The position numbers and the translations under genes were made by a program. This document shows, one piece after another, positions 16,877-47,135 of a stretch of DNA of 64,000 nucleotides. Each line of letters starts with the position of its first letter. Within the stretch, counting starts at the first letter, position 1. Source of the DNA: a bacterium. GTDB taxonomy: Bacteria > Patescibacteriota > Minisyncoccia > Phycocordibacterales > UBA2100. The notes under the pieces were generated by a model. It had not been told where the DNA came from. It searched no databases and was given only the letters and a program-made list of their open reading frames with translations. Location: NCBI GenBank assembly GCA_030674455.1, contig JAUSGQ010000002.1:6207-70206 (forward strand), written 5' to 3'.

Positions 16877-16912
16877 GAACATTCCAACATTCTGCAGAAT
16901 GTTGGAATGTTC
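16877..16912. repeat. Family-2 perfect 36-bp palindrome GAACATTCCAACATTC-TGCA-GAATGTTGGAATGTTC
   Basis: It sits immediately after the murC stop. A second copy lies at 18098..18133, so the aminotransferase gene is bracketed. Confidence 0.85.
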
Positions 16913-16995
16913 TTAGGTGGGCCACACATAAATCTCCCTTTCAGGGCATATAGACCCCTTTTACATTTTTCCAATCAGTAAGTATTATAGCTCTA

Positions 16996-18093
16996 ATGTC
17001 AAAGCAGTCCGAGCATGGAGGTGCATTTTTCGCCGCGATTGGTGATGACTTCTCTACACTGGAAAGGTCAAGCAAAGTAATTAGCGCAGATGTACTTGAT
17101 GCGTGGTTTGACCCATCGCCAAAAGTTATCAAGAAAGTCCGCGAATATCTATCCTTCGCTTTGAAAACGTCGCCGCCGACGCATTGTGAAGGTTTGATAA
17201 GAATCATTTCGAAGCAGCGGGAAATTCCACAAGAAAACATCGTTGTTGGTAGCGGCTCATCAAGTTTGATATTTTCTTTTTTTCCTCACATTTTGAATAA
17301 AGGCGACAAAGTTATGATTCTTGATCCGATGTACAGCGAGTACCCGCATATTTTAGAAGATGTCATTGGCGCGACCGTTTATAGACATGTTTTGAATAAA
17401 AAGTTTGATTTTGCGATTGATTGCGACCTACTGGTTAAGGACATCACCAAAATTCATCCCACAGTGATGGTTTTGGTGAATCCGAACAATCCAACTGGGC
17501 AGTATTTGGGAAAAGAAGATGTTCTTGAACTTGCTAAGACCTTTTCTGACGTGATATTTGTTGTGGACGAAGCATATATAGATTATGTAGAGCGAGATAA
17601 ATCAGTTGAGAGGGAGGTAGTTAAACATCCAAATCTTGTCGTTATAAAGTCAATGTCAAAAGTGTACGGATTAAGCGGGGTGCGTCTGGCCTATCTCACT
17701 GCACCTGTTTCAATAATCGAAAAAATCTCTCAATTTATTCCTCCGTGGCCAGTGAGTTTAGTTGCGCAAATCGCAGGAGTTGAAGCGCTTAAAGACAAAG
17801 AATACTATACGCAAAAATATGCTGAAACTAAGGTACTCCGAGAAGCGATGATTCAAGATTTGCTAATACCGTCTCTAAGGATTTTTGATTCGGTCGCAAA
17901 CTTCTTTCTTGTAAATCTAACTGGCACAGGATTGAGCGCAAGAAATATCGTTGAGGAATTGCGCGAACAGAATATTTATCTGCGTAACTGCGACTCGATC
18001 AGTAAACAGTTTCATGATGATTTTATTCGTATAGCCGTGAAAGATAAAACAAGCAATAAAATCATTACCAGTGCGCTCAAGGCGTTGTTGTAA
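16996..18093 (+). CDS. PLP-dependent class I/II aminotransferase of the HisC/CobD type
   Basis: LVNPNNPTG...VVDEAYIDY...KSMSKVYGLSGVRLAYL. The N-terminal HGG is reminiscent of CobD-type threonine-phosphate decarboxylases. The gene is flanked on both sides by family-2 palindromes. Confidence 0.7.
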   Translation: MSKQSEHGGAFFAAIGDDFSTLERSSKVISADVLDAWFDPSPKVIKKVREYLSFALKTSPPTHCEGLIRIISKQREIPQENIVVGSGSSSLIFSFFPHILNKGDKVMILDPMYSEYPHILEDVIGATVYRHVLNKKFDFAIDCDLLVKDITKIHPTVMVLVNPNNPTGQYLGKEDVLELAKTFSDVIFVVDEAYIDYVERDKSVEREVVKHPNLVVIKSMSKVYGLSGVRLAYLTAPVSIIEKISQFIPPWPVSLVAQIAGVEALKDKEYYTQKYAETKVLREAMIQDLLIPSLRIFDSVANFFLVNLTGTGLSARNIVEELREQNIYLRNCDSISKQFHDDFIRIAVKDKTSNKIITSALKALL

Positions 18094-18097
18094 ATAA

Positions 18098-18133
18098 AAA
18101 CATTCCAACATTCTTGAGAATGTTGGAATGTTT
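18098..18133. repeat. Family-2 perfect palindrome AAACATTCCAACATTC-TTGA-GAATGTTGGAATGTTT
   Basis: See 16877..16912. Confidence 0.85.
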
Positions 18134-18154
18134 GCAGACGAATACGCATACATG

Positions 18155-18181
18155 TTGCAAAAGTAAAGCGAGGTGTATAAT
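18155..18181 (+). promoter_or_regulatory. Promoter of the rib operon (TTGCAA, 15-nt spacer, TGtTATAAT extended -10)
   Basis: It lies immediately upstream of the FMN riboswitch. Confidence 0.5.
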
Positions 18182-18182
18182 A

Positions 18183-18435
18183 GGCACTTCCTTCGGGGTT
18201 TGGGTGATGTTCGTAAAGTACGGGCAAAGTCCCAATCGGCGGTAAAGCCCGTCCTCCTGCGCTAAAGCTATGGAGGACAAGCGAGTCCGCGAGCTCTGGT
18301 ATTTATCAGAGCACGACTGCGGTTTGATTCCGCGACCGACCGTATAGTCGGGATGAAAGAAGGAAACCGTACCGCATCACTGATGCATAATGGTACTGTT
18401 TCTATCCCCGAAGAAATGAGGGGATTTTCTATTTT
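18183..18435 (+). promoter_or_regulatory. FMN riboswitch (RFN element) with a terminator expression platform
   Basis: CTTCGGGGTTTGGGTGA...TCCCAATCGGCGGTAAAGCCCG...GATTCCGCGACCGACCGTATAGTCGGGATGAAAGAAGG matches the RFN consensus (UUCGGGGCAGGGUGAAAUUCCC.ACCGGCGGUA..AGCCCG...CCGACAGUGAAAGUCUGGAUGGGAGAAGG). The terminator TCCCC-gaagaaatga-GGGGA plus a T-tract lies at 18405..18435, just before the ribE ATG. Confidence 0.8.
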
Positions 18436-19047
18436 ATGTTCACAGGAATCATCACAGAAATCGGAACCGTTAAAAAGCGCACGGCGAGCGGTTTAGAAGT
18501 TGCCGCAAGCCCCAGCATCGTGCGCCGTCTCGGTCTGGGAGAAAGCGTGGCCGTAAACGGCGCGTGCCTCACTGTTACCTCGGCTCGCGCCGGAACGATT
18601 AAAGCGGATGTCATGGAAGAAACTTGGCGGAAAACGATGCTTGGAAAATTGATATCTGGGAAAAAAGTAAATTTGGAGCTTCCTCTAAAGGCCGACTCTC
18701 TTATCTCGGGCCATTTCGTTCACGGCCATGTGGACGGTGTAGGAAAAGTAAGTAAAGTTGTGAAAACAGGCGCAAGCTATCTTCTTACGCTGGAAGTGCC
18801 GAGAGAAATCTCCCGCCACCTTGTAGATAAGGGTTCTATTGCGGTAAACGGCATCTCGCTCACTATCATCAGGGCGAGCAAAAATAAATTCAGCGTCGGG
18901 ATTATTCCTCACACATGGAGAAATACGACACTGCATGAAGTCAAAGCAGGCGATACGGTGAATATTGAAATTGACATACTAGCGAAATACGCAAGTAAAT
19001 CTCTAACCGCACATTTGCCCGCGTCACTTGCTTATTCGCGCGAATAA
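18436..19047 (+). CDS. ribE: Riboflavin synthase alpha subunit
   Basis: MFTGIITEIG...GESVAVNGACLTV, with the duplicated lumazine-binding halves. The stop lies inside the family-4 palindrome. Confidence 0.9.
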   Translation: MFTGIITEIGTVKKRTASGLEVAASPSIVRRLGLGESVAVNGACLTVTSARAGTIKADVMEETWRKTMLGKLISGKKVNLELPLKADSLISGHFVHGHVDGVGKVSKVVKTGASYLLTLEVPREISRHLVDKGSIAVNGISLTIIRASKNKFSVGIIPHTWRNTTLHEVKAGDTVNIEIDILAKYASKSLTAHLPASLAYSRE

Positions 19048-19052
19048 GCAAG
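19027..19052. repeat. Family-4 palindrome CTTGCTTATTCGCGCGAATAAGCAAG (copy 2), encoding the ribE C-terminus ...LAYSRE*
   Basis: Identical to 1311..1334. Confidence 0.8.
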
Positions 19053-19070
19053 TAGTTAAGATTAATTTAT

Positions 19071-19514
19071 ATGAAATCAAAAAAGAAAATTCGGATAGGG
19101 ATTATCGGAACTTCGTTCCGTGAGGACGTTACGAGTGAGTTGGAAAAGCGCTGTGTTGCAACGCTTCTTGCTCGCGGTATTGCAAAAAACCACATTACGA
19201 TGGTTCGCGTTCCCGGCGCTCTTGAGGTTCCGCTCATCGTCAAAAAGATGGCGAAGCAGAAAAGATATGATGCGCTGATAACCTTCGGCGCGATAGTGAA
19301 GGGGAAGACATACCATTTCGAGCAGATTGCGAACGAGTGCTCGCGCGGATGCGCGGAGGTCGCGCTTCAATACGAAATTCCTGTGATATTCGAGATTCTT
19401 GCCGTTTACAAATTGTCGGACGCATTCGAGCGTGCGACGAGAAAGGTTGAGAACAAAGGCGTCGAAGCCGCGGAAACCGCGCTCTCGATGATTACACTCA
19501 TATCAAAATTATGA
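19071..19514 (+). CDS. ribH: 6,7-dimethyl-8-ribityllumazine synthase
   Basis: IGIIGTSFREDVT...VPGALEVPL...ITFGAIVKGKTYHFE. Confidence 0.9.
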   Translation: MKSKKKIRIGIIGTSFREDVTSELEKRCVATLLARGIAKNHITMVRVPGALEVPLIVKKMAKQKRYDALITFGAIVKGKTYHFEQIANECSRGCAEVALQYEIPVIFEILAVYKLSDAFERATRKVENKGVEAAETALSMITLISKL

Positions 19515-20803
19515 AAAGCTTAAAGAAAAAGTTTTGCACAGTGCCGGAAGCGATAGCGGAAATAAAGAAGGGCAAGATGCTCATTGTTGTTGATAGTCCG
19601 AAGCGGGAGAACGAGGCCGACTTATACATTCCCGCCGATGCCGCGACCGGAGAGAACATCAATACCATGCTGAAGTATGGAGGCGGTATTGTTTGCACCG
19701 CGATTACTCCTAAGCAAGCGCACAATCTCCGGCTTTCCGCGATGGTTCCCTTAAGACAGAATACCGAAAAGACAGGCGTGAATTTCACGATCTCGATGAA
19801 CGCAAAGAGAGGAATCACGAGCGGAGTTTCCGCATACGACAGGGCAAAAACGATACGCATACTCGCCAACCCAAAGTCGCGCCCTAGCGACATAGTAAAA
19901 CCAGGCCATGTGTTCGGGCTTGTGGCACGTGCCGGCGGCCTCTTGAAGCGTGAAGGCCACACCGAGGCGGCTGTTGATTTGGCGCGCCTTGCGGGGAGGG
20001 AGCCTGCGGGCGTCTTGTGCGAAATCGTCGGAAAAAATGGCCGCATGGCGCGAGGCGCCGAAATCCTGCGTTATGCGCGCGAACTTAAGGTAAAGATCGT
20101 GGCGATAAAAGATATTGTGCGATACCTGCGTGCGCATCCGCTTCCGCAACTTCAGTCTCCGCACGGTGTGGCGAGGTTCTCTGAATCCACGCTTCCCACG
20201 CTGCACGGAATGTTCCGCATCATCGTCTTCACGTCTACTATCGACGACCTTGAACATGTCGCGCTCATTCACCTGCCTGCCGCGCCCGCGGCGCAGGCAG
20301 GCGGCGATAGTAAAGAAATTTCGTCCGACGCTCATGGGAAGCCTGTTCTCGTCAGAGTTCACTCACAGTGTCTTACGGGAGACACATTCGGCTCCCTTCG
20401 GTGCGACTGCAGAGAACAATTGCAGGCAAGCATGGAAATAATCAGTAAGGCAGGAGGCGGAATCATTGTGTATCTCAATCAGGAAGGGCGCGGTATAGGG
20501 CTTGGAAATAAAATAAAAGCGTATGCGCTTCAGGATGAGGGGTACGACACGGTGGATGCAAACCACGCGCTTGGATTTGCCGCCGACGCGCGGGATTATG
20601 AAGTTGCCGCCATGATATTAAAAGACTTGGGCGCCAAAAGAATAGAATTGCTGTCCAATAATCCCGAGAAAGAAAAACAGCTTACCTCGTTCGGAATCAA
20701 TATCGCGAAAATGATCCCTCTGGAAATCCCACATAATGAGATAAACGCGGCATATCTTTCCGCAAAGAAAAAGAGGCTCGGCCACACATTAAAGAATGTT
20801 TAA
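19511..20803 (+). CDS. ribBA: Bifunctional 3,4-dihydroxy-2-butanone-4-phosphate synthase / GTP cyclohydrolase II
   Basis: The DHBP synthase half has RENEADL...GHTEAAVDLARLAG. The GCHII half has RVHSQCLTGD...CDCREQL. The inter-domain linker carries an in-frame family-1 palindrome (HLPAAPAAQAGGD). Confidence 0.9.
   Translation: MKSLKKKFCTVPEAIAEIKKGKMLIVVDSPKRENEADLYIPADAATGENINTMLKYGGGIVCTAITPKQAHNLRLSAMVPLRQNTEKTGVNFTISMNAKRGITSGVSAYDRAKTIRILANPKSRPSDIVKPGHVFGLVARAGGLLKREGHTEAAVDLARLAGREPAGVLCEIVGKNGRMARGAEILRYARELKVKIVAIKDIVRYLRAHPLPQLQSPHGVARFSESTLPTLHGMFRIIVFTSTIDDLEHVALIHLPAAPAAQAGGDSKEISSDAHGKPVLVRVHSQCLTGDTFGSLRCDCREQLQASMEIISKAGGGIIVYLNQEGRGIGLGNKIKAYALQDEGYDTVDANHALGFAADARDYEVAAMILKDLGAKRIELLSNNPEKEKQLTSFGINIAKMIPLEIPHNEINAAYLSAKKKRLGHTLKNV
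20273..20302. repeat. Family-1 palindrome CCTGCCTGCCGCGCCCGCGGCGCAGGCAGGC in the ribBA linker, in frame
   Basis: Canonical arms CCTGCCTGC/GCAGGCAGG. Confidence 0.8.
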
Positions 20804-20808
20804 ACGCT

Positions 20809-21894
20809 ATGAAAAATTCTTTCATAGGGGACGAGAAGTTCATTGACGAGGCACTAAGATTAGCGGTTAAAGGCATCGGTCAAACGAATCCAAATCCGAT
20901 GGTCGGCTCTGTCATTGTTAAAAACGGCAAAATCATCGGACGCGGATACCACAAGAGAGCGGGCACTGCTCATGCGGAAGTTTTGGCACTTAGAGATGCG
21001 GGCGCCGACGTCTCCGGCGCGACTCTTTATACAAATCTTGAGCCGTGCGCTCACTTCGGCAAGACTCCGCCCTGTGTGGAATCCATAATCAATGCGGGAA
21101 TAAAAAGGGTTGTTTGTTCCGCCATCGACCCCAATCCGAAAGTGCAAGGTAAAGGAGTAGCTCGCCTCAAAAAATCCGGCATTTCTGTTTCTGTGGGGAC
21201 GGAAAAAGAAGCTGCGCATGCTCTTAACGAATCGTTTTTTGTTTTTCACGAAAAGAAGCGCCCATTCGTCGCTCTTAAATTCGCGATGAGCTTGGACGGA
21301 AAGCTGGCAACGCGAACCGGCGATTCAAAGTGGATTACCGGCGAAAAGGCCAGAGCTTTTGCGCGAGAATTGAGAGGTGCCTACCAGGCGATTCTTGTCG
21401 GCGTGAATACGGTGATTCGCGATAATCCGCATCTTGGAGTCCGTGCAAAGGGAAGGAGAGACCCTGTGCGGGTAATTGTGGATTCTCATCTACGCATCCC
21501 GCTCCGTGCGAATGTTCTTCGGGATTCAAATGTCATTATTGCGACAACATCCAGCGCTCCAAAAAAGAGAATAGAGGAGCTGGAAAAACGAGGCATTCGC
21601 GTTCTCGTTTTTAAGGCGCGAATTTCCATTCCAAAGCTTCTTGCCGAACTGCGAAAAGCTGAAATTATCAGCGTATTCGTTGAGGGCGGCGGAGAAATAC
21701 TGGGCAGTTTTATTGACGCCAAAATTGTCGATAAAGCATACATTTTTTGCGCGCCCGTTTTAGTTGGAGGAAAAGATGCGCACTCCATAGGCGGAAAGGG
21801 CGTGCAGAAAATCGCGCAGGGATTGCGTCTCAAAACCGAATCAGTGAGTACACTTGGTGATGACATTATCGTAATTGCGGATAGGCTAACATGA
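20809..21894 (+). CDS. ribD: Bifunctional diaminohydroxyphosphoribosylaminopyrimidine deaminase / 5-amino-6-(5-phosphoribosylamino)uracil reductase
   Basis: The deaminase zinc motifs HAEVLAL and LEPCAHFGKTPPC are present, plus a C-terminal reductase domain. Confidence 0.9.
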   Translation: MKNSFIGDEKFIDEALRLAVKGIGQTNPNPMVGSVIVKNGKIIGRGYHKRAGTAHAEVLALRDAGADVSGATLYTNLEPCAHFGKTPPCVESIINAGIKRVVCSAIDPNPKVQGKGVARLKKSGISVSVGTEKEAAHALNESFFVFHEKKRPFVALKFAMSLDGKLATRTGDSKWITGEKARAFARELRGAYQAILVGVNTVIRDNPHLGVRAKGRRDPVRVIVDSHLRIPLRANVLRDSNVIIATTSSAPKKRIEELEKRGIRVLVFKARISIPKLLAELRKAEIISVFVEGGGEILGSFIDAKIVDKAYIFCAPVLVGGKDAHSIGGKGVQKIAQGLRLKTESVSTLGDDIIVIADRLT

Positions 21895-21921
21895 TTGAGT
21901 TCCGGCTAATCGCACCTTATC

Positions 21922-21960
21922 AACACATCCTTACAAACTTGAGAATGTAAGGATGATGTT
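21922..21960. repeat. Family-2 variant palindrome ACATCCTTACA-aacttgagaa-TGTAAGGATG
   Basis: It shares the central AACTTGAGAA with copies at 22258 and 47104. It lies between ribD and the arsR-like gene. Confidence 0.7.
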
Positions 21961-21965
21961 ATGAT

Positions 21966-22256
21966 ATGAATATGACCAAAGTAAAAAATGCGAAGCAAAT
22001 GGAGCGGCACTTAAAAGGAATATCAAACCATTACCGCATAGAGATTTTACTTCTCGTAGCCGAAAGTGGAGGCATAACGCTTGAAGAAATTGTAAGAACG
22101 CTCGGCGCAAATGAGAAAACATTGGGGGAACACACGCGGCGGCTCCAGAATAGCGGACTCATAAATAAAAAATATCGTGGCAAGTTTGTTGAGCACACGT
22201 TATCTCCTTACGGCAAGTTGTTCGTCCGTTTTCTCAAATCATTCCAGCACGTTTAA
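21966..22256 (+). CDS. ArsR/SmtB-family winged-helix transcriptional regulator
   Basis: 96 aa with HYRIEILLLVAESGGITLEEIVRTLGANEKTLGEHTRRLQNSGLI (HTH). The gene is flanked by family-2 variant palindromes on both sides. Confidence 0.65.
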   Translation: MNMTKVKNAKQMERHLKGISNHYRIEILLLVAESGGITLEEIVRTLGANEKTLGEHTRRLQNSGLINKKYRGKFVEHTLSPYGKLFVRFLKSFQHV

Positions 22257-22257
22257 G

Positions 22258-22289
22258 ACATCCTTACAAACTTGAGAATGTTGGTATGT
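22258..22289. repeat. Family-2 hybrid palindrome ACATCCTTACAAACTTGAGAATGTTGGTATGT
   Basis: The left arm is of the 21925 type and the right arm of the 16877 type. Confidence 0.6.
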
Positions 22290-22427
22290 GTTTGTGGTTG
22301 GAAGCGCGATTGACGCAAAAATGATATATTCAGTTCCGCCTGCCGAAGTAGCTCAGCCCCGACGCCCTGCGGGGTCGGGGAGCCGACCGAAGCGTCGGCT
22401 TTGGTAAGAGGGTTGTTCTTTAGTTAA

Positions 22428-22500
22428 GCCACCTTAGCTCAGTTGGTAGAGCACGTCTTTCGTAAAGACGATGTCCGCGGTTCGATTCCGCGAGGTGGCT
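22428..22500 (+). tRNA. tRNA-Thr (anticodon CGT)
   Basis: GCCACCTTAGCTCAGTTGGTAGAGCACGTCTTTCGTAAAGACGATGTCCGCGGTTCGATTCCGCGAGGTGGCT. Anticodon stem CGTCT/AGACG, loop TTCGTAA. T-loop GGTTCGATTCC. Confidence 0.9.
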
Positions 22501-22586
22501 CAAAATAGGTTTAAGCACGACAGCACTTTTACTGGCGACGTAGAGCGAGTGAAATGAAAACGTACTCATTTTCATTTCCGAGCCGA

Positions 22587-22645
22587 GCCTGCCTGCGCCC
22601 GCTGGCCTGCCTGTGCGTGGCACGCAGACAGGCGGGCAGGCAGGG
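22587..22645. repeat. Composite family-1 GC-rich nested palindrome downstream of tRNA-Thr. It contains the 26-mer CTGCCTGTGCGTGGCACGCAGACAGG, which is also found inside proC
   Basis: Outer arms GCCTGCCTGCGCCCGC / GCGGGCAGGCAGGG. The inner 26-mer is identical to 44163..44188. Confidence 0.8.
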
Positions 22646-22695
22646 AGTCAGAAACCGGCGTAACGCCCTGCGGTCTCGAAGTGAGACGGTTTACC

Positions 22696-23079
22696 CTATC
22701 CGCGCGCCTTTTTCGCTGCTTTTTTCGCGCCTTTCAGTGCTTCCAGCTTGACTGCTCGCGCGGAGCCGCCAATCGTTTTCCAGTGTTTTTTCAAATCTTG
22801 CGCCAGCGCCTTTATTTCTTCGCGGCTTGCCTTTTTTCCTTTCTCATACGTCGCGGCCACGGAATCAATGATTTCGCGGTACACCGGCTCGCTCACGTCG
22901 CGCGCCTTCTCTAATTTCTCAACGACATCGCCTTTCATCTTGATAGCCCATGCCTTTGTCTGCCTCCGATGCGCCTTACCTTTCGGCCCGAGAAAGAAAT
23001 AGGCCGCCGCCAAACTGGCAACACTCGCGCCGAGAACGGCCAATTTTGCCGCGCCTGAACTTTTGCTTGATTTTTTCAT
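22696..23079 (-). CDS. Hypothetical small membrane-anchored coiled-coil protein (YtxH-like)
   Basis: It has an N-terminal TM helix, and the rest is charged and helical. Confidence 0.4.
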   Translation of the reverse strand: MKKSSKSSGAAKLAVLGASVASLAAAYFFLGPKGKAHRRQTKAWAIKMKGDVVEKLEKARDVSEPVYREIIDSVAATYEKGKKASREEIKALAQDLKKHWKTIGGSARAVKLEALKGAKKAAKKARG

Positions 23080-23157
23080 TTTATTTTTGATATTAAAAAT
23101 ATTAATTGCTCGACCCCGCCGTCCACGCCGTTTCAGAAACGAATGTGTTACAGCAGA

Positions 23158-23400
23158 TTACTTTTTATCCTTGTTTTTCTTCCTCCGTGCGGGAGGGAAA
23201 AAAAGCCGAAAAACCATATTATCTTCCAAACGCTCCCGAAGCTCCGCGATGAATTCCTCCGATTCCTTGAAACCGCCCTTGAGTGCCTCTGAAAGGATGT
23301 AGAGATTTTTCCCCGCCTTGATTAAATAAAACAGGAGAATGGAAGCCAAAACCGCCAACACAACCGTTGACACGGAAGATATAAAAAAGAAAATGTCCAT
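23158..23400 (-). CDS. Hypothetical small membrane protein (80 aa)
   Basis: It has an N-terminal TM helix and a charged helical tail. Confidence 0.4.
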   Translation of the reverse strand: MDIFFFISSVSTVVLAVLASILLFYLIKAGKNLYILSEALKGGFKESEEFIAELRERLEDNMVFRLFFPPARRKKNKDKK

Positions 23401-23747
23401 TTTAAAGGAGAAATTCCAATGGACAAAAAATAAAGAACTTTCTTAATCGTATCCTCGCGCTTATCGCCAAAATCGCGCTACCGCAATAGCCGGAAATATG
23501 GTACCCCGTTAGAAGCCCGCCCGCCATCGCCCGAAAGCGACGGCAGTGACGAACTTGATGAGCGAATAAATACTTCCCGTTCGTTTTCATACCACTTGCC
23601 ACGCTCTGGCTTTGGCGGGCAGGTAGGAAGCGATGCTTCCCGCTTCAGAAAACTTACAGTGAGACCTATTCGGTATTCTGAAAGAGTCTTCTAACTTAGC
23701 ATATTTCAGCCTTCCGAGACTTCTAACGAGGTGGTATAATATACCTA

Positions 23748-23942
23748 ATGAAGCACTGGTCAGTCGATACGCGCGCGCTAGAGAATGACCCGGACGCGCT
23801 GGCCGTGTGGGAACTTGAGAATGCCGTCAATTTCGGAATTCGCGACGGTAAAATCAAGAAGCAAGACCTTCTCGCCTATTGGGACAAGCTTGAACTAGAC
23901 CCGCACAAAAAGAAGTTTCTTTCTCTCATACTATCGCAATGA
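23748..23942 (+). CDS. Small protein translationally coupled to the AbiEii-like toxin gene; putative antitoxin
   Basis: 64 aa. Stop and start overlap (ATGA) with the downstream gene. It is preceded by a TGGTATAAT extended -10 positioned so the transcript would be leaderless. Confidence 0.4.
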   Translation: MKHWSVDTRALENDPDALAVWELENAVNFGIRDGKIKKQDLLAYWDKLELDPHKKKFLSLILSQ

Positions 23943-24595
23943 CCTCCATTCTTTCGGACAACCAGCAAAAGTTGCTGAAATTGTTGAGCGAAGAGCAGCG
24001 CATTTGCCAGACATTTTACCTGTCTGGAGGGACAGCGCTTGCGGAGTTTTATTTGCAACATCGGCTCTCGGAAGATTTGGATTTCTTCTCGGAAGAAGAG
24101 TTCGAGCCGGAAGGCGTTTCTGCAGTATTGAAGAAGCTCCAAAAAGCAGTAGGAATTATCCGTGTGAGGTATGAACAATCTTTCAACAGAAATCTTTTTT
24201 TCCTTGAACTTGAGAAGGATGAAATTAAGACGGAGTTTACCTATTTTCCGTTCCCGCGAATCGAACAAAAGAAGAAGATTGGCAGTCTGCATATCGACAG
24301 CATCATCGATATCGCAGTCAATAAAATATTTACAATCTATCAAAAGCCTCGTTCGCGCGACTTCATTGATTTGTACTGCATTCTGAAGCGTGAGCCGTGG
24401 ACTATCGACGACCTCGTAAAGAAGGCGAGGATAAAATTCGATTATCATATAGACCCTCTGCAACTCGGCGCGCAGTTTCTGCGTGCGCAAGAGCTAAAGG
24501 ACTATCCGCGTATGCTCATACCTCTTGACGAGAACGCGTGGCAAAAGTTCTTTCTTGAGGAAGCGAAACGGTTGTCCCCCGAGATTCTCAAGTAA
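23939..24595 (+). CDS. Nucleotidyltransferase of the AbiEii/DUF1814 toxin family (type IV TA / abortive infection)
   Basis: It has the N-terminal motif YLSGGTALAEFYLQHRLSEDLDFF (G-G-x-A-L...R-x-S-x-D-x-D), typical of AbiEii nucleotidyltransferase toxins. 218 aa. Confidence 0.6.
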   Translation: MTSILSDNQQKLLKLLSEEQRICQTFYLSGGTALAEFYLQHRLSEDLDFFSEEEFEPEGVSAVLKKLQKAVGIIRVRYEQSFNRNLFFLELEKDEIKTEFTYFPFPRIEQKKKIGSLHIDSIIDIAVNKIFTIYQKPRSRDFIDLYCILKREPWTIDDLVKKARIKFDYHIDPLQLGAQFLRAQELKDYPRMLIPLDENAWQKFFLEEAKRLSPEILK

Positions 24596-24797
24596 ATCGG
24601 CTCTTTCGAGACCGCAGGGCGTTAAACCATGCGGCTCGAAAGACAGCCCTGCGCACAAGCGCAGGGCGTTGTGCCGATTTCTAACTCCTCGACTCGGAAG
24701 AGTACATGAGTACATGTACTCTTCTCTCGCTCTACGTCGCCAGCAAGAAGTCTGCCATGTAATAATTCAAGCCCTCTTACGGCTTCGTTAGCATGAA

Positions 24798-25292
24798 ATG
24801 AAAGAAACCAAAGCCATGCCAATAGGCAGGCAGGGATTTATCTCGCCCCTGCTCCTCGCGCTTATCGCTATCCTCGTGCTTGGCGGCGGGGCGTATGTGT
24901 ATGTACACAATAAGAAACAGGGGAATCAGCCCGTGGCTTCTTCTACTCAAGCAACATCAACGGCGCAGACTTTAGACTTGAAGACATCCCCACCTCCTCA
25001 AGCTGGGATGTTGCGATACCAAAGTTCTCTCGGCTTTAGCATAGACTATCCAGAAAAATGGAGGATTGAATCTGCGACGATTGAAGGGTTCGGAAGCATA
25101 AAGGAAGCGGAAAAAGTCAGCGGGAACCATTTTTCTATTTATAGTTATCCAGAAAATAATTCTTACAACCCCGGAGCTTCGGTGCCGCAGATGGAATTAG
25201 CAGAAAAGACACTTATCATTATCGGATACTGGAAGATTGGGCATCGAGTAGGAGAAACTGCAGAAGGGCGACAAAATATCTGTCGAGGATGA
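24798..25292 (+). CDS. Hypothetical secreted/membrane-anchored protein
   Basis: It has an N-terminal TM helix/signal anchor (ISPLLLALIAILVLGGGAYVYV). No recognised domain. Confidence 0.45.
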   Translation: MKETKAMPIGRQGFISPLLLALIAILVLGGGAYVYVHNKKQGNQPVASSTQATSTAQTLDLKTSPPPQAGMLRYQSSLGFSIDYPEKWRIESATIEGFGSIKEAEKVSGNHFSIYSYPENNSYNPGASVPQMELAEKTLIIIGYWKIGHRVGETAEGRQNICRG

Positions 25293-32400: not shown

Positions 32401-33504
32401 ATGCAACGCGCTTTTGGTTTGGCAATAACGTTAACGCTTGTCGCGGCTTTTTTGTTCGTGCTCGCAGAGAGGTATGTGTTGCATATACAGTCGGTGACGA
32501 ACTATGCATGGCCGGCGAGGGTAAAAACCGCGTCAATTGTTTTTGGCGGCGACATGATGTTCGATAGGTCAATTCGAACGGCAATCGAAAAACGTACACA
32601 AAAACAAGGTGGCCTGCCTGCCGAAGCCTTGGCGCAGGCAGGAGATTTTATTTTCTCCTGCATTGACCCAGTTCTTGCAGACGCTGATTTAGTCGTGGCT
32701 AATCTTGAGGGTCCGATAACGGAACATGCCTCCATCAGCGCGTCATCAGTCCCCGGAGACGCGTCTAACTTCACGTTTACGTTTCCGACTTCAACATCTG
32801 CGCTTCTCAACTCTCACAATATTCGCATGGTGAACCTGGGGAATAACCATATCCTGAATTTTGGAAGGGTGGGCGCAAAGGTCACCGCGCAATTCCTCAA
32901 AGATGCCGACATTGGATATTTTGGCCAGCCAACGGTCATTTCATCCAAAGCTCTGGCGCAGGTTGGAGCGGCGGCCTGTCCTTTTGAAGCATCATGCGAA
33001 GGGTGGGCAAAGGGAGGCGGTGAGTTGATGCGCACAGTTTCCACAAAAATAATACATGGAATTCCTCTAGCTTTTATAAACTACAATGAGTTTGCTCCCG
33101 CAGAACATTCCAACATTCTTGAGAATGTTGGAATGTCGTCGACTACGATATTTCAGATACAAAATGCGCGCGCCAGCGGATACATTCCGATAGTCTATAC
33201 GCACTGGGGAGTGGAATACGCGACCACATCATCGGCATATTCGCGCGAATTAGCCCATAGATTTATCGAGGCAGGCGCGGAAATTGTTATCGGTTCGCAT
33301 CCGCATGTTGTTCAAGAACACGAAGTTTATAACGGCAAGCGCATTTATTATTCGCTCGGCAATTTCATCTTTGATCAGTATTTCAGCGATGATGTTACGC
33401 ATGGGCTTCTCCTCAAAGTCGCTTTTAATCAAAGCGGCGTGCAGTTGGTCAAAGAAATCCCGATAGAGCTAGAGCGCGATCGAAGGACGTGTCTTGCATT
33501 GTAG
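32401..33504 (+). CDS. CapA/PGA_cap family metallophosphoesterase (poly-gamma-glutamate capsule synthesis-like)
   Basis: An N-terminal TM helix. FGGDMMFDR...VANLEGP...NLGNNHILNFG...HWGVEY...GSHPHVVQ motifs. It contains two in-frame palindrome insertions (family 1 at 32611, family 2 at 33103). Confidence 0.75.
   Translation: MQRAFGLAITLTLVAAFLFVLAERYVLHIQSVTNYAWPARVKTASIVFGGDMMFDRSIRTAIEKRTQKQGGLPAEALAQAGDFIFSCIDPVLADADLVVANLEGPITEHASISASSVPGDASNFTFTFPTSTSALLNSHNIRMVNLGNNHILNFGRVGAKVTAQFLKDADIGYFGQPTVISSKALAQVGAAACPFEASCEGWAKGGGELMRTVSTKIIHGIPLAFINYNEFAPAEHSNILENVGMSSTTIFQIQNARASGYIPIVYTHWGVEYATTSSAYSRELAHRFIEAGAEIVIGSHPHVVQEHEVYNGKRIYYSLGNFIFDQYFSDDVTHGLLLKVAFNQSGVQLVKEIPIELERDRRTCLAL
32611..32642. 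repeat. Family-1 palindrome GGCCTGCCTGCCGAAGCCTTGGCGCAGGCAGG inside the capA-like gene, in frame (LPAEALAQAG)
   Basis: Canonical arms plus the CGAAGCCTTGGCG core. Confidence 0.8.
33103..33138. repeat. Family-2 palindrome GAACATTCCAACATTC-TTGA-GAATGTTGGAATGTCG inside the capA-like gene, in frame (EHSNILENVGMS)
   Basis: It is nearly identical to the intergenic copies at 16877 and 18098. Confidence 0.85.
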
Positions 33505-38834: not shown

Positions 38835-38880
38835 CGATTTCGCTCCCCTTGGCTGATACAATAGAGGCATTAATAGCCTA

Positions 38881-39264: not shown

Positions 39265-39287
39265 TGCGTGGGCGGTTTATCAAATCC

Positions 39288-39890: not shown

Positions 39891-39909
39891 TTGCGGACTG
39901 CGCTACTAT

Positions 39910-41175: not shown

Positions 41176-41419
41176 TCTGACATTGTTATGCGCGCTTTCC
41201 AGGCAAAGAGAATGAAAGACGAGATCAGGCGCTTGATGCGGCTGACGCGTCCGCCGCGCATGGAAGGAGTCGTGAAAGAGGCGATGATGCAGCCGGTTCG
41301 GAAGCCGAAAATGTCGCGGGAGGAACCGCAGCGGCCGCGCAAGACGCAGGTAAGCACAGAGCAGCGCAAGGAATACCATTTGGCCGACCGGAGGCAAAAA
41401 TAATCTCGTACGCTCGCAT

Positions 41420-42058: not shown

Positions 42059-42060
42059 AT

Positions 42061-42094
42061 GTTCAGCTGGCGGCGATTCAGCTGGCGGCGATTT
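42061..42094 (+). repeat. Tandem direct repeat (TTCAGCTGGCGGCGAT)x2
   Basis: GTTCAGCTGGCGGCGATTCAGCTGGCGGCGATT, immediately after the PRTase stop. Confidence 0.7.
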
Positions 42095-42233
42095 GACAGG
42101 ATAAGCGAGATATGTTATTATCGTTTTTACTCTTTAACTTTCTCGACCATTCCGGTTGAGCCGTCCGCGCGGACCCGCGGAAACCCGAAACCAATGTCAT
42201 TAGGGCAAAGGTTTCAAATGGCAAGGAGGCCAT

Positions 42234-43007: not shown

Positions 43008-43110
43008 CAAAGTAGCATTGCCGAATATCGGCACGGCCCCAATATCCGCAAGGTGAGGGGCTTTGTTTTTAATAGCTGACGTTACTGAAAGGTCTGACCT
43101 TCACAGAAAA

Positions 43111-43332
43111 TCAAACTCTTGCAGTAAGCGAGAAGGGTAGCCCCGCAGGAATCTTTGCGCTTTGCGCGCGCCGTGAAGCATTGATGATAGTAAATCCTCG
43201 AACAGTCTTTGTTCGTGGATTTACGCGGAGCAGAACATCACCTTTTGCTTCGATGGTCTCATCGGCTACGCTCGGCGCACCATTTGAGAAGTAAAATACG
43301 TCGGCCTCTTTGTCGTAGAAGTACTTAATCAT
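43111..43332 (-). CDS. DUF2283 family protein (putative antitoxin)
   Basis: MIKYFYDKEADVFYFS...GDVLLRVNPRTKTVRGFTI matches the YxYDxExDxLYI signature of DUF2283. Confidence 0.6.
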   Translation of the reverse strand: MIKYFYDKEADVFYFSNGAPSVADETIEAKGDVLLRVNPRTKTVRGFTIINASRRAQSAKIPAGLPFSLTARV

Positions 43333-43335
43333 AGT

Positions 43336-43617
43336 CTATAGAATACTGCGTTTCGGCTTTTTCGCAAGGTAGGCGGTAAGGATGAACGGGTATCTCGTAA
43401 CCTTAACGACGATGGCGAGATACTTTTTTCGGCGTGCAAGCAAGCGATAACAAATAATGACAGTCGAATCATGCAGGGAAGCAACAGCAATGTCTGGATG
43501 TTCCAATGTTTCGGCGAAGCGAGAGAGGCAATGCGCGACGTCGGGATGAAAGGTGAGTATATGCGCTTTGCGCTCATCAGTCAGCGTGACAATTCCATAT
43601 GGAGAGTTAAATCTCAC
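43336..43617 (-). CDS. Small protein upstream of and co-directional with the DUF2283 gene; putative DUF4258-type toxin
   Basis: 93 aa, 4 bp from the DUF2283 gene. This is the classic DUF4258-DUF2283 arrangement. Confidence 0.45.
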   Translation of the reverse strand: MRFNSPYGIVTLTDERKAHILTFHPDVAHCLSRFAETLEHPDIAVASLHDSTVIICYRLLARRKKYLAIVVKVTRYPFILTAYLAKKPKRSIL

Positions 43618-43792
43618 TGCTCCATTGTATCAAACTTGTTATCTACTGACTGGATTTGGGACGATTGACAGCCGATTTGAGACATGCTATACTTAAGCAA
43701 TCAAATCAGCGCTGATCCAGAGAAGTGAGGATCGAGCTTCCACTCCAGCTTACTGCCTTTGATATATTAGCCAAACATTTTTTCTCATTGCT

Positions 43793-43996
43793 ATGCAAAC
43801 AGGAACAATTGCCCGTCTTACCGACAAGGGATTCGGGTTCATCAAGCGAGAGGGACAGGAGAGAGATCTCTTCTTCCACTCCAACGAGCTCGTCGGCGTT
43901 ACGTTCGACGAACTTCGCGAAGGTGATACGTTGACATTTGAAGTCGCGGACAGCCCGAAGGGCCCCAACGCGGTCAAGGTCAGCAAGGTCGTTTAA
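43793..43996 (+). CDS. csp: Cold-shock protein (CspA family)
   Basis: GTIARLTDKGFGFIKREGQERDLFFH. RNP1/RNP2 motifs. Confidence 0.9.
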   Translation: MQTGTIARLTDKGFGFIKREGQERDLFFHSNELVGVTFDELREGDTLTFEVADSPKGPNAVKVSKVV

Positions 43997-44021
43997 GATT
44001 TACAATCTTGCACAAAACGCC

Positions 44022-44052
44022 GCGTCTGACGCGGCGTTTTGTGTTTTTGGGT
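44022..44052 (+). terminator. Rho-independent terminator after csp
   Basis: AAAACGCCGCGTC-tga-CGCGGCGTTTTGTGTTTTT. Confidence 0.8.
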
Positions 44053-44099
44053 TAATTTGAGGTGTGTGTCAATAAGGGTATACTTAATCAACAAATTCT

Positions 44100-44909
44100 A
44101 TGAAAATATTTATCATTGGTTTTGGACATATGGGGCAGGCAATCGCGCAATCTTTGCGCGCTCTGCCTGTGCGTGGCACGCAGACAGGTTCCAAATCACA
44201 CTATGATATTTCCGCCACGAGCCGCGATGCCCGCCTGAAAGCAGCTTCTTCGGCGCTTGCCGTCACGCCCGATTTGGAATGTACAGGTCTTAAGGATGCC
44301 GACGTGGTCATTCTTGCGGTCAAGCCCCAAGATTTAGCAGAAGCGGCAAAACAATACAAGAGCAATGTTTCCGCAAACGCGATTTTGGTTTCAATCGCGG
44401 CGGGCATCACGCTCGCGAAGATAGAGAAACTTTTCGACCACAAAAAAATAGTGCGGGTCATGCCCAATATCGGACTCTCGGTGGGCGAGGGCATTTCTGC
44501 GTGGAAAAGTTCCGGGCTTTCATCCGACGATGAAAAAAATGTACGACAACTGCTGAACGACATTTCCGAGAATTTTGAAGCGAACGATGAGCAAGAGATT
44601 GATGCGGTAACGGCAATTTCCGGAAGCGGTCCGGCATATTTCTTTGTTTTTGCTGCAGCTCTTCTAAAATCGGCTAAAGCTCTTGGACTCGCAGACAAGG
44701 AGGCTCGCGCATTGGTGGGAAAAACATTTTCCGCTGCCGCAGCTCTGCAGAAAGGCGCAGATTACGAAGATTTGATTAAGAGGGTCGCTTCCAAGGGCGG
44801 GACGACGGAAGCCGCATTGCGTGTTTTTGAAAAGAATAATCTTTCCGGCATCGTCGAAGAGGCGACTAAGGCGGCGTATGACCGCTCAAAAGAATTGAAT
44901 GAAAAGTAA
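44100..44909 (+). CDS. proC: Pyrroline-5-carboxylate reductase
   Basis: IFIIGFGHMGQAI...VKPQD...MPNIGLSVGEG...GSGPAYFF...GGTTEAAL. The N-terminal Rossmann region carries an in-frame family-1 26-mer (LPVRGTQTGS). Confidence 0.85.
   Translation: MKIFIIGFGHMGQAIAQSLRALPVRGTQTGSKSHYDISATSRDARLKAASSALAVTPDLECTGLKDADVVILAVKPQDLAEAAKQYKSNVSANAILVSIAAGITLAKIEKLFDHKKIVRVMPNIGLSVGEGISAWKSSGLSSDDEKNVRQLLNDISENFEANDEQEIDAVTAISGSGPAYFFVFAAALLKSAKALGLADKEARALVGKTFSAAAALQKGADYEDLIKRVASKGGTTEAALRVFEKNNLSGIVEEATKAAYDRSKELNEK
44163..44188. repeat. Family-1 26-mer CTGCCTGTGCGTGGCACGCAGACAGG inside proC, in frame
   Basis: Identical to 22607..22632 (intergenic). Confidence 0.85.
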
Positions 44910-46176
44910 CATCACACAATTAAAAAAGACAAAAGCGACGAGCGCGCAGCTCGGTCTTTTGAACCATGCGGCGCGGAATGCGATCCTTCTCGATATTGCA
45001 AGGGCACTCCAGGGCGCTCGCGGGGAGATACTTGCGGCAAATAAGCGCGACCTAAAAGCATTCAAGGGGTCAGATGCAATGCGCGGGCGCTTGGTATTGG
45101 CGGAAGAAAAGCTGGAAAAATACGTGCGCGGCATAGAAGAAGTGACAAAGCTTCCGGATGCCCTCGGTAGGATATTGGACGAACGGACGCGCCCCAATGG
45201 ACTGCGCATACAGAAAGTGAGCGTACCGCTCGGGGTCATCGGAATCATATACGAATCGAGGCCGGAGGTTACCATTGACCTGGCGTCGCTCGCTCTCAAA
45301 ACCGGAAATGCCATCGTACTCAAAGGAGGTAAGGAAAGTTACCTTACGAATCGCGCGATTGTCTCTTGCATACACGCTGTTTTGAAAGCGCATCGAGTTT
45401 CCTCGGATGCAGTATTTCTTGTTGACCCGAAAAGCGATTGGAAAAAAGAGCTGTTGAACGCCCATGGCCTTATAGACCTGCTTGTGCCGCGCGGAGGAGC
45501 GGGTCTGATACATTTCGTTCGCGAGAATTCGCGCATACCCATTATTGAAACAGGCGCGGGAGTGTGCCACATACTCGTTGATGAATCGTACAACGTAGAA
45601 AAAGCGGTTCCGATAATCGTTAACGCGAAAGTCCAATCTCCTGGCGTATGCAATGCGCTCGACACGCTCGTCGTGCATGAAAAAATTGCTTCCCAATTAT
45701 TGCCTCGTGTTGCGGCAGAACTTGCACAGTATGGAGCCGAGATTTTTGCCGACCCGCAAGCGTTCAAGATTTTATCCGCCGAAGGCGGATCCGCCTACGG
45801 CGGAAAAGCAAGAACCGGATTCTTGAGAAAAGCGCGTCCGGAAGATTTCGGACACGAATTCTTGTCGCTAAAAATGGCTGTTAAAACAGTTAAGAGTTTC
45901 GCGGAAGGACTCGCTTTTGTGCAGAAACATTCCTCTGCTCACACGGAAGCGATACTAACCGAGGATGAAAAGCATGCGCGCAAATTTTTGAGCGATATCG
46001 ATGCCGCCGTTGTCATTCATAATGCGTCTACCAGATTTACCGACGGCGGAGAATTTGGCATGGGAGCGGAAGTAGGCATCAGCACCCAAAAACTCCACGC
46101 ACGCGGGCCTATGGGCATAGACACGCTTACGAGTTATAAATGGATTCTGCGCGGCGACGGGCAGATAAGACAATAA
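44899..46176 (+). CDS. proA: Gamma-glutamyl phosphate reductase (glutamate-5-semialdehyde dehydrogenase)
   Basis: Aldehyde dehydrogenase fold. The C-terminal TSYKWILRGDGQIRQ matches the ProA C-terminus. Confidence 0.9.
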   Translation: MKSNITQLKKTKATSAQLGLLNHAARNAILLDIARALQGARGEILAANKRDLKAFKGSDAMRGRLVLAEEKLEKYVRGIEEVTKLPDALGRILDERTRPNGLRIQKVSVPLGVIGIIYESRPEVTIDLASLALKTGNAIVLKGGKESYLTNRAIVSCIHAVLKAHRVSSDAVFLVDPKSDWKKELLNAHGLIDLLVPRGGAGLIHFVRENSRIPIIETGAGVCHILVDESYNVEKAVPIIVNAKVQSPGVCNALDTLVVHEKIASQLLPRVAAELAQYGAEIFADPQAFKILSAEGGSAYGGKARTGFLRKARPEDFGHEFLSLKMAVKTVKSFAEGLAFVQKHSSAHTEAILTEDEKHARKFLSDIDAAVVIHNASTRFTDGGEFGMGAEVGISTQKLHARGPMGIDTLTSYKWILRGDGQIRQ

Positions 46177-46314
46177 TACAAAAATTAAAAGTCAGAAATC
46201 AAAATGTAATGTAAAATGAAAAAAGAATCAATTCAATCAGAATTCCGCGTATCCAATTTTGAATTTTGATTTGTCATTTTGCATTTTGGTTTTTACATTT
46301 TGAATTAACTTCGT
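46177..46314. repeat. AT-rich imperfect inverted repeat (AAAATGTAATGTAAAATG ... CATTTTGCATTTTGGTTTTTACATTTTG) between proA and proB
   Basis: ~35-nt arms flank a ~50-nt core. It could be a regulatory element or a relic. Confidence 0.5.
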
Positions 46315-47091
46315 ATGTATAGAAAAATAGTCATAAAAATAGGGACGGGCGTGATTTCCAGAAAAGACGGGAAGCTTGATTCACGCGTGCTTAAACTTTT
46401 AGTTGACCAGTGTGCGCAGCTGCGAAAGAGCGGCATTCAAACGGTCATCGTGACGTCTGGCGCCGTGGGAACCGGCAGAGGGCTCATCACCATAGAAGAC
46501 GGCGCGACGAGCGTTATCAAAAAACAGGTCTATGCCGCCGTGGGGCAGGTGAAGCTCATGAGCATGTACGCGAAGTACTTCGCAAAGCACGGGATTTTCT
46601 GTGCGCAGATTTTGGCGACCAAAGAGGATTTTCGCGACAAGGAACACTATCAGAACATGAAGAATTGTATGGAAAATCTCATGCGCGACAACGTCGTGCC
46701 TATCGTCAACGAAAACGACGCGGTCGCCGTTGCAGAGCTCATGTTTACCGACAACGACGAACTGGCCGGCTTAATTGCGACCCAACTTAATGTAGATGCC
46801 GTCATAATTCTCACGAGCGTGGATGGCGTTATCGCGGGCAAACCAACAGACAGGAACGCGCGCGTTATTTCGGAGATTCCGTTCGCTGATATTTCTTCTT
46901 TTGAGAAATATGTCATGCCGGACAAATCAGAATTCAGCAGAGGCGGGATGCTGACGAAATTTAAAGTTGCCAAAGAGTTGGCGGAGAAGGGAATTACAAC
47001 TCACATAGCAAATGGTCTCACTTCTGGCATCCTTTCGGATATTCTCGCCGGAAAATCAGTCGGTACCAAATTCCTTCCGAAGGACAAATAA
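46315..47091 (+). CDS. proB: Glutamate 5-kinase (no PUA domain)
   Basis: IVIKIGTGVI...VIVTSGAVGTG...NENDAV...TDNDELA motifs. 258 aa. Confidence 0.9.
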   Translation: MYRKIVIKIGTGVISRKDGKLDSRVLKLLVDQCAQLRKSGIQTVIVTSGAVGTGRGLITIEDGATSVIKKQVYAAVGQVKLMSMYAKYFAKHGIFCAQILATKEDFRDKEHYQNMKNCMENLMRDNVVPIVNENDAVAVAELMFTDNDELAGLIATQLNVDAVIILTSVDGVIAGKPTDRNARVISEIPFADISSFEKYVMPDKSEFSRGGMLTKFKVAKELAEKGITTHIANGLTSGILSDILAGKSVGTKFLPKDK

Positions 47092-47103
47092 CGAAGTTAG
47101 CAA

Positions 47104-47135
47104 ACATACTTACAAACTTGAGAATGTGAGGATGT
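47104..47135. repeat. Family-2 variant palindrome ACATACTTACAAACTTGAGAATGTGAGGATGT
   Basis: The AACTTGAGAA centre is shared with 21925 and 22258. Confidence 0.65.

Follow-up and report, generated by a model that had tools for sequence, protein, structure and literature searches.

Family-2 palindromes and an associated winged-helix gene in Patescibacteria: a candidate autoregulator with dispersed DNA sites

Palindromes and genes at the locus

A stretch of 64,000 nucleotides from a bacterium of the Patescibacteriota (GTDB lineage Minisyncoccia; Phycocordibacterales; UBA2100; GenBank assembly GCA_030674455.1, contig JAUSGQ010000002.1, positions 6,207 to 70,206 of the forward strand), referred to here as the window, was analysed for a family of short AT-rich palindromes, Family-2, and for the small ArsR/SmtB-like winged helix-turn-helix (wHTH) gene that two of its copies enclose. 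Six palindromes had been listed in the initial annotation and all are present, only the start given as 21922 being off by 3 nt. With up to three mismatches allowed, the pattern of subtype 2a was found at 16877–16912 (0 mismatches), 18098–18133 (2) and 33103–33138 (2), where 0 matches were expected from 100 shuffles. The pattern of subtype 2b was found at 21925–21955, 22258–22288 and 47104–47134, again with 0 expected in shuffles.

Copy 1 (subtype 2a, 16874–16915, no strand assigned) is a perfect 42-bp palindrome with its core at 16879–16910 and the TAA stop of murC in its left end. Copy 2 (subtype 2a, 18098–18133, no strand assigned) is a perfect 17+17 palindrome that starts 4 nt past the stop of an aminotransferase gene and lies upstream of the promoter-like TTGCAA-TATAAT of the FMN riboswitch and rib operon. 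The annotated perfect palindromes after the murC and aminotransferase stops are thus both perfect, but the second ends in AAAC...GTTT and not in GAAC...GTTC. Together they bracket the HisC-like class I/II aminotransferase gene (16996–18093, + strand), which is variably present among close relatives. The other four copies are on the + strand. Copy 3 (subtype 2b, 21925–21956) lies immediately 5' of the wHTH gene (21972–22256, + strand; 94 aa plus stop, alternative ATG at 21966), and copy 4 (22258–22289), which joins a 2b left arm to a 2a-like right arm, begins 1 nt past the stop of the same gene. Copy 5 (subtype 2a, 33103–33138) is in frame within capA (32401–33504), and copy 6 (subtype 2b, 47104–47135) is found 12 nt past the proB stop. 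The centre is asymmetric in five window copies, all of which have CTTGAGAATGT on the + strand, and four of the six fall in a span of 5.4 kb, at most about 5 kb from the wHTH gene. The window, which comes from a CPR (candidate phyla radiation) genome assembled from a metagenome and close to Kaiserbacteria/Paceibacterota, has a GC content of 49% and the 36-bp 2a element one of about 33% (12/36 bases).

Pfam matches identified the window genes as MurC, class I/II aminotransferase, RibE/H/BA/D, HTH_5, PGA_cap and AA_kinase. The exact MurC protein had no database entry, which is probably due to a different start codon. At the gathering threshold, Rfam returned an FMN riboswitch (5' of the rib operon) and three tRNAs (including tRNA-Thr, 3' of the wHTH gene) for the whole window, and nothing else; a relaxed Rfam scan of copy 1 gave only sub-threshold miRNA-hairpin noise. 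As RNA, four copies out of six form hairpins with energies of −17.8 to −28.1 kcal/mol (z −5.0 to −6.9 against shuffles), copy 1 being the most stable (−28.1 kcal/mol, z −6.9). The copies at 22258 and 47104 fold no better than shuffles (z +0.41 and −0.34), and their sequence is kept although the hairpin is poor, which points to recognition of the sequence and not just of a hairpin.

Element sequence and host range

The element ACATTC-NN-ACATTC-TNNA-GAATGT-NN-GAATGT was found in at least 120 loci when a single genome of each GTDB species was scanned with a degenerate pattern in which loop and stem spacers were unconstrained. Nearly all loci are in metagenome-assembled genomes (MAGs) of Patescibacteria, the candidate phyla radiation (CPR), where the hosts comprise Kaiser-, Nomura-, Harrison-, Lipton-, Zambryski-, Brenner-, Sung-, Yanofsky-, Doudna- and Portnoybacteria, with many labelled Saccharibacteria. 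Hosts outside the CPR include Kiritimatiellia (three contigs of one MAG, and others), Verrucomicrobiota, Omnitrophota and Planctomycetota (including a 5.97-Mb scaffold). Groundwater datasets such as those of Hainich and Rifle are the source of many contigs. The GC content of the loci ranges from 27% to 68% with the element unchanged, and in GC-rich Planctomycetota and Kiritimatiellia it stands out as a sharp 32-bp AT-rich block.

A logo of 165 copies gave the consensus A.AACATTC-YA-ACATTC-T-NN-A-GAATGT-TR-GAATGT-T.T. Neither a GTAG/CGTC tag nor a conserved T-tract was seen in this logo of flanks and core, a T bias occurring only at +1 (72%) and +3 (64%). At the free mirror positions, 91%, 81% and 64% of the distinct sequences have complementary bases, compared with 48%, 53% and 35% in shuffles; palindromy is maintained by compensatory substitutions.

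Several trivial origins were rejected. A sequencing-adapter or assembly artefact is ruled out by the compensatory variation, the in-frame copies in conserved proteins and the many independent assemblies, a CRISPR-like array by spacings that are gene-sized and irregular, and a genome-specific repeat family of the repetitive extragenic palindromic (REP) type by the occurrence in many CPR lineages and other phyla. A phage-borne element was also set aside; the sole match among viral contigs (40,750 bp) also carries the wHTH gene and a TspO-like gene, and contigs of exactly this length occur among those of the CPR. A literature search that included the literal sequence gave no published description, the literal search returning only unrelated siRNA and primer matches.

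The winged-helix gene as partner of the element

The wHTH protein is a distant ArsR/SmtB member. It passes Pfam HTH_5 (PF01022; 26.3 bits, cutoff 22), scores under the cutoff of NCBIfam HTH_metalloreg (34.5 bits, cutoff 55) and matches HlyU, YgaV and ArsR in the PDB at an E value of about 1e-3. The window protein contains no cysteine, and in this respect does not show the metal- or redox-sensing site of ArsR/SmtB proteins. Its invariant residues (E11, R12, K15, G16, N19, H20, R22, H54, L58, G62, L63, K66, V73, H75 and F87) are a DNA-binding scaffold. Homologs form 2166 clusters at E<1e-5, of which the top 120 share 76–95% identity across the named CPR lineages, and the family has 402 representatives at E≤1e-3 among 1.84 billion proteins. 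For comparison, CapA homologs beyond the closest few are about 50–57% identical to the window CapA.

Gene and element were linked from both directions. With the 96-aa wHTH protein as a tblastn query, about 25 of the 120 pattern-selected loci, among them contigs of Verrucomicrobiota, Kiritimatiellia and Planctomycetaceae, had a homolog directly next to an element or between two of them. Conversely, 80 metagenome loci were picked solely by similarity to the protein alignment, and an element was called with at most 4 mismatches at 21 specified positions, within 90 nt upstream. An element was present upstream in 72/79 loci and downstream in 75/80, against a background of 10/600 random 96-nt windows. 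The wHTH gene is a conserved partner of the element. In this module the upstream copy is usually separated from the ATG by 17 nt, and 4–11 nt lie between the stop and the downstream copy.

The initial annotation had taken the bracketed regulator for a possible mobile insertion. It is no such passenger: every close relative has the gene in the same ribD surroundings, and elements flank it on both sides in more than 90% of the protein-selected loci. What had been missed is that the regulator is the conserved partner of the element and probably its binding protein.

Two clades of the protein differ in their flanks. Clade A1, with the recognition helix NEKT[LI]GEHTRRL, has flanking elements of the ACATCC..ACAAAC type, and clade A2, with [FI]KTIS[QE]HTR.L, has flanks of the ACATTC..ACATTC type on 20/20 assessable sides. 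In L129 and L148 an A1 and an A2 module lie close together in one locus, each with its own element subtype. A distant wHTH paralog of 91 aa (in L123) is flanked by a shorter GTTCT-NN-AGAAC, which resembles the centre of the element. The last codons and the stop of many A2-clade genes are part of the element itself (ACA TTC TAA).

Upstream copy as a putative promoter and operator

Alignment of 67 distinct upstream regions gave the consensus ACATCCTTAcAAAC TTGA GAATGTAAGgATGT tGTGTAtAaT, followed by 5–6 nt and the ATG. The offset expected of a −10 box holds a TAnnnT in 84% of upstream copies, 25% of downstream copies and 16% of dispersed copies. From this anatomy the upstream copy is inferred to be the promoter and operator of the wHTH gene, the TTGAGA centre serving as the −35 box and the right arm as the spacer before a near-consensus −10 box. 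In window copy 3, the putative boxes are TTGAGA at 21939–21944 (−35) and TATGAT at 21960–21965 (−10), with the ATG at 21972. The ATG would thus lie about 6 nt after the −10-like box, at the expected transcript start, which implies a leaderless mRNA. The figure of 16% for dispersed copies, against 84% for wHTH-upstream copies, rules out that the dispersed copies are portable promoters.

Copies within coding regions

The copy that had been annotated as reading through capA in frame does so, and encodes EHSNILENVGMS in a variable loop. The element peptide is found in the same loop in 6 of 19 aligned CapA homologs, and the rest have other short loops. Orthologous capA copies differ by stepwise compensatory changes: the hexamers are ACATTC, ACATTC (left) and GAATGT, GAATGT (right) in the window, ACATAC, ACATAC and GAATGT, GTATGT in L121 (19560), and ACATAC, ACATAC and GTATGT, GTATGT in L123 (16952). 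The last step restores pairing and replaces Asn by Tyr, which means that selection acts on the nucleic acid and not on the peptide.

Other in-frame hosts, named from their translations and not from a family library, are TsaD, PurL, Tgt, ArgS, Pgk, MnmA, a MurD-like ligase, HsdS, PrmC, TspO-like proteins and two orthologous glycosyltransferases. As in CapA, in-frame copies occupy loops of TsaD, PurL, Tgt, ArgS, Pgk, MnmA and others. None of the frames of the element contains a stop, and the frame xHSNILxNVGMx is used by 18/24 copies in open reading frames (ORFs) of at least 250 aa.

Some further insertions were noted in these proteins. MnmA of L078 (6652–6750) has two tandem in-frame copies (HSNILKNVRM...HANILQNVSM), and the CapA homolog P0014 has 11 aa extra inside the loop of the element (EHSNI-PSTGADTSSIG-LQNVGMS). 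A second, GC-rich in-frame inverted repeat, GGCCTGCCTGC...GCAGGCAGG, lies in the window capA at 32601–32654 and encodes ...GGLPAEALAQAG; this insert is present in only some CapA homologs (P0004, P0005). A third insert of the window CapA, at about columns 180–215 of the alignment, is also present in P0002, P0003, P0017 and P0024.

Distribution of the remaining copies

Among 167 elements, 38 adjoin a wHTH gene and 30 are inside ORFs (~18%), so that about 82% are extragenic. Intergenic elements are in convergent settings in 25 cases and in divergent ones in 9, at a median distance of 22 nt from the facing stop and 40 nt from the facing start. The orientation of the loop relative to the upstream gene (29 against 19) shows no significant bias. 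In successive 1-kb bins from the wHTH gene, element density per 10 kb falls from 1.9 to 1.2, 0.6 and about 0.15, with a background of 0.19. Beside the wHTH gene, single genes are often separated by one element each in the same orientation; such one-orientation runs occur in L016 (6 elements), L196, L087, L181, L099, L068 and L010, and spacers are mostly identical within an array. The genes next to the wHTH gene vary greatly, with Fic, HsdS, SWIM, glycosylase and TspO-like genes among them.

A TspO/MBR-like membrane protein is the commonest downstream neighbour of the wHTH gene (12–15 of about 100 loci), and one and the same loop of it often holds either an in-frame element or a different insert (L156, L179/L180, L207 and L095).

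Synteny in close relatives

In the closest relative (L121/L208) the order is murC, aminotransferase, rib operon and wHTH gene, and elements follow murC and the aminotransferase gene, enclose the wHTH gene and occur within capA. The post-murC copy is orthologous and has a different stem with fully compensated changes. Orthologs of copy 2 were located at L121:6074 and L208:7105, and those of copy 4 at L121:10287, L123:10296 and L208:11318. In Kaiserbacteria GW2011_GWA2_49_19 (L123–126), the 91-aa paralogous wHTH gene replaces the aminotransferase gene between murC and rib, and the order rib-wHTH-prfB is kept. The interval after the wHTH gene contains nothing in L123–126, a major facilitator superfamily (MFS) transporter gene in L121/L208, and tRNA-Thr with an AbiEii toxin gene in the window.

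The elements mark variable gene content, as the initial annotation had supposed: three close relatives do not have the same genes at murC|X|rib and at wHTH|X|prfB. The annotation's question whether the murC–ribE interval is empty in relatives has this answer: its content changes, and the interval is filled in both relatives, by the aminotransferase gene in L121/L208 and by the wHTH paralog in L123–126. The aminotransferase gene was not seen to travel with its flanking elements, more distant homologs (L209, L210) being located elsewhere without any element.

The paralog lies at 5827–6102 in L123 (also in L124–L126) and has HTH_5 and HVO_A0114 matches; its last codons (...KFLRTLE*) come from the element-like sequence TTCTTGAGAACATTGGAATAG. 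The variable interval of the window (22428–25292) holds tRNA-Thr(CGT), two small reverse-strand ORFs, the AbiEii type IV toxin gene (23939–24595) and a 164-aa ORF.

Interpretation and alternative explanations

We propose, with a probability of about 0.6, that Family-2 palindromes are the cognate DNA sites of an ArsR/SmtB-like wHTH autoregulator and have been dispersed in the manner of REP or Rickettsia palindromic elements. The module would consist of a palindrome, about 17 nt, the ORF, 4–11 nt and a second palindrome. The upstream copy would carry the promoter of the wHTH gene, and a protein dimer on the palindrome would repress its own gene, as in the ArsR/SmtB family. From this home module, the unit of about 32–36 bp would be copied elsewhere, mostly within about 3 kb and often as one copy between each neighbouring gene, and more rarely to gene 3' ends and in frame into coding regions. 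The dispersed copies may act as protein-bound boundaries or roadblocks, or may be merely tolerated selfish copies. The proposal draws on results computed directly, namely the association of gene and element, an upstream anatomy like that of a promoter, flank subtypes that co-vary with protein clade, clustered copies, in-frame insertions and compensatory changes; from these we infer protein–site binding, a role of the dispersed copies and the way in which copies are made. As a wider and more tentative suggestion, held at somewhat less than even odds, the wHTH protein and its site of about 32 bp, which would propagate much like REP doublets with their transposase, may form an undescribed two-part system in CPR bacteria and in the Planctomycetes–Verrucomicrobia–Chlamydiae (PVC) group, the protein-bound sites acting as recombination or cassette boundaries or as transcription-unit insulators.

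Several observations weigh against a regulator with dispersed sites. The co-variation between gene and flanks would also be expected if the module were simply inherited as a unit, and the window has no A2-type gene within 64 kb despite its three 2a-type copies. The promoter spacer in the window is short (15 nt), and a generic consensus scan did not call a promoter there. The structure model of the wHTH protein is poor (predicted local distance difference test score, pLDDT, of 65.6, with a shallow alignment). No enzyme that would copy the element was identified in the analysis, and we know of no ArsR-type repressors that keep sites inside coding regions or at gene ends. On the sense strand, G-T mismatches outnumber A-C mismatches (140 vs 77), which hints at a constraint at the RNA level, and the mirror covariation seen between copies of a single genome agrees better with a hairpin or a copying mechanism than with the symmetry of a dimer by itself. 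The G-T excess and the covariation leave room for an RNA or single-strand DNA component.

Four other explanations were weighed against the proposed regulator and its sites. Recombination sites of the lox, dif or attC kind, in which 13-bp inverted arms and a 6-bp CTNNAG spacer delimit single-gene cassettes and the wHTH protein is an accessory or architectural factor, would account for the one-orientation single-gene runs beside the wHTH gene with their mostly identical spacers, for the variable neighbours of that gene, for the differing junction content among three relatives and for the clustering of elements within 3 kb. We nevertheless consider them unlikely: a tblastn search with XerD matched a tyrosine recombinase in only 1 of about 211 loci with 6–10 kb flanks, no integrase or recombinase cluster appears among the neighbours, and aminotransferase homologs occur elsewhere without elements. 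The attC-like boundaries suggested in the initial annotation find no counterpart either, the R''/R' core motifs (RYYYAAC/GTTRRRY) being absent from the elements, and solo in-frame copies in essential genes and sharp solo copies in GC-rich genomes would be left unexplained. That the elements are classical REPs, or REP doublets forming hairpins (REPINs), mobilised by a REP-associated tyrosine transposase (RAYT, a Y1 HUH transposase), with the wHTH association secondary, is quite improbable, even though their size, palindromy, 3'-end bias and clustering are REP-like. The window does contain a RAYT-like Y1_Tnp gene (61283–61981; 38.9 bits, cutoff 23), and in L090 a Y1_Tnp homolog lies 2.4 kb from an element; the window gene, however, is flanked by a different palindrome, ACACAAGTC(T/A)GACTTGTGT (61230–61271 and 61987–62005), Family-2 has no GTAG or CGTC tag, and a Y1_Tnp homolog was found in only 3 of about 211 loci, one of which (L209) is without an element. 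REP families are also lineage-specific, whereas the Family-2 sequence is cross-phylum. The earlier description as REP-type elements holds for dispersed, REP-like palindromes that favour gene ends, but not for membership in the classical REP/RAYT class.

The bias towards 3' ends given above (25 convergent against 9 divergent settings, median 22 nt from the facing stop) would also fit plain terminators or mRNA-stabilising hairpins, recurring by convergence or local duplication with no protein involved, as would the very stable hairpins of four of the six window copies, the A/T tracts on some copies (e.g. post-murC in L121) and the excess of G-T over A-C on the sense strand. This reading is nonetheless hard to sustain, and we hold it to be rather improbable. 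The lack of a conserved T-tract means that the elements are not canonical intrinsic terminators, and a terminator scan calls only the 18098 copy, on the minus (antisense) strand. The stem sequence is conserved across phyla from 27% to 68% GC, two window copies are unfolded, copies occur inside essential genes, loop orientation has no significant bias (29 vs 19), and the link to one gene family is tight. Finally, uptake sequences in Neisseria and Haemophilus often form inverted pairs in terminators. DNA uptake sequences (DUS) for natural competence would explain a motif common to related taxa, a preferred frame in coding regions and inverted repeats after genes, a general link of uptake sequences to terminators being described in PMC1852404. 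Such sequences are expected at about 1 per kb and evenly spaced; for the element the figure is about 0.2 per 10 kb at a distance from the wHTH gene, with strong clustering around that one gene. A 32-bp unit cannot accumulate by point mutation, and neither the promoter role of the upstream copy nor the gene association is predicted, which leaves this explanation with very little probability.

Comparison with known systems

Family-2 shares with REPs and REPINs, as described in the literature on them and on RAYTs (Bertels & Rainey 2011, PMC3116915; PMC3337134; for tagged REPs with a GTAG/CGTC end, PMC3733652), the form of short (20–40 bp) dispersed palindromes, mostly after genes and some of them clustered, with one conserved gene flanked by copies. 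It differs in that the partner is a 94-aa winged-helix binder instead of a Y1 HUH transposase, the upstream flanking copy is a putative promoter, the distribution is cross-phylum and about 18% of copies are intragenic and in frame.

Rickettsia palindromic elements are about 100–150 bp long and confined to Rickettsia. The Family-2 unit, by comparison, is 32–36 bp (12 codons), occurs in CPR, PVC and other phyla, and is tied to a regulator gene. Both are palindromes that lie in frame in housekeeping genes, where they add a short peptide, as well as in intergenic regions, and no transposase is known for either (for the Rickettsia elements, PMC1779305 and a review of prokaryotic miniature inverted-repeat transposable elements, PMC10969869).

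The likeness to the ArsR/SmtB family lies in a small HTH_5 wHTH protein and, by sequence, in an inverted repeat over the −35 box and spacer of its own promoter. SmtB, CzrA and CadC are autorepressors on 12-2-12 operators over their own promoters. The inner half-sites of Family-2, ACATTC/GAATGT, are 10 bp apart centre to centre, but the element has four hexamers (14-4-14), the protein has no Cys or obvious metal-site motifs, a second copy follows the stop, and gene ends and ORFs contain dozens of further copies.

Like attC sites and the Acinetobacter pdif sites (XerC/D), Family-2 elements are imperfect palindromes after single genes, in one-orientation arrays that mark variable gene content. 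Unlike attC, they read ...TTCCAAC.../...GTTGGAA..., the seventh base of the would-be R' being A and not Y; they also differ from both in their short and invariant length, conserved sequence, absence of a linked integrase and solo copies inside genes. With ParB-parS and MatP-matS the system shares a protein and a palindromic site that are co-conserved over large distances, with sites near the gene for the protein and tolerated in ORFs. parS and matS are 13–16 bp long and arise by point mutation. The protein family here is different, and no partner ATPase or partition gene is linked to it at this locus.

CPR bacteria, almost all of them uncultured, account for a large part of bacterial diversity and have very small genomes with few regulators; a regulator-plus-site pair would be among the few cis/trans regulatory features common to them. 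Family-2 would also be a second example, beyond Rickettsia, of palindromes colonising protein-coding genes, and its elements may mark entry points of accessory genes in CPR genomes. The element and its peptide xHSNILxNVGMx can serve to flag insertions when CPR proteins are annotated, and with a protein of only 94 aa and a duplex of only 32 bp the proposed pair offers a testable handle.

Other palindromes and genes in the window

The flanks of the RAYT-like gene (61283–61981) contain ACACAAGTCWGACTTGTGT and not Family-2, in an upstream inverted doublet TGTACACAAGTCTGACTTGTCGACAAGTCAGACTTGTGTACA (61230–61271) and a downstream ACACAAGTCAGACTTGTGT (61987–62005). This gene and its palindromes are arranged in the classical REP/RAYT manner and do not belong to Family-2. 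At 15171–15208 there is a related GTTAGTCTGACTAAC hairpin.

An ORF at 48406–48807 matches Pfam 23S_rRNA_IVP (23S rRNA intervening-sequence protein); it is not within an rRNA gene and adjoins the gap gene. Another palindrome family, TCCCRAGGWGACWCCTTG / CAAGGWGTCWCCTYGGGA, has three window copies (12248–12289, 51908–51951 and 58926–58978). Right after the proB copy of Family-2, and unrelated to it, lies the palindrome ACTTTCTTATTCCAGTGTTT-GCA-AAACACTGGAATAAGAAAGT (47163–47205), and a related ...CTAGTGTTTTGCAAAACACTAG... hairpin follows the post-murC Family-2 copy in L121 (4868–4900); these two cases suggest that the two hairpin families tend to adjoin. The palindrome ACTTGCTTATTCGC/GCGAATAAGCAAGT occurs twice, at 1305–1340 and at 19026–19053, the second time at the ribE/ribH junction.

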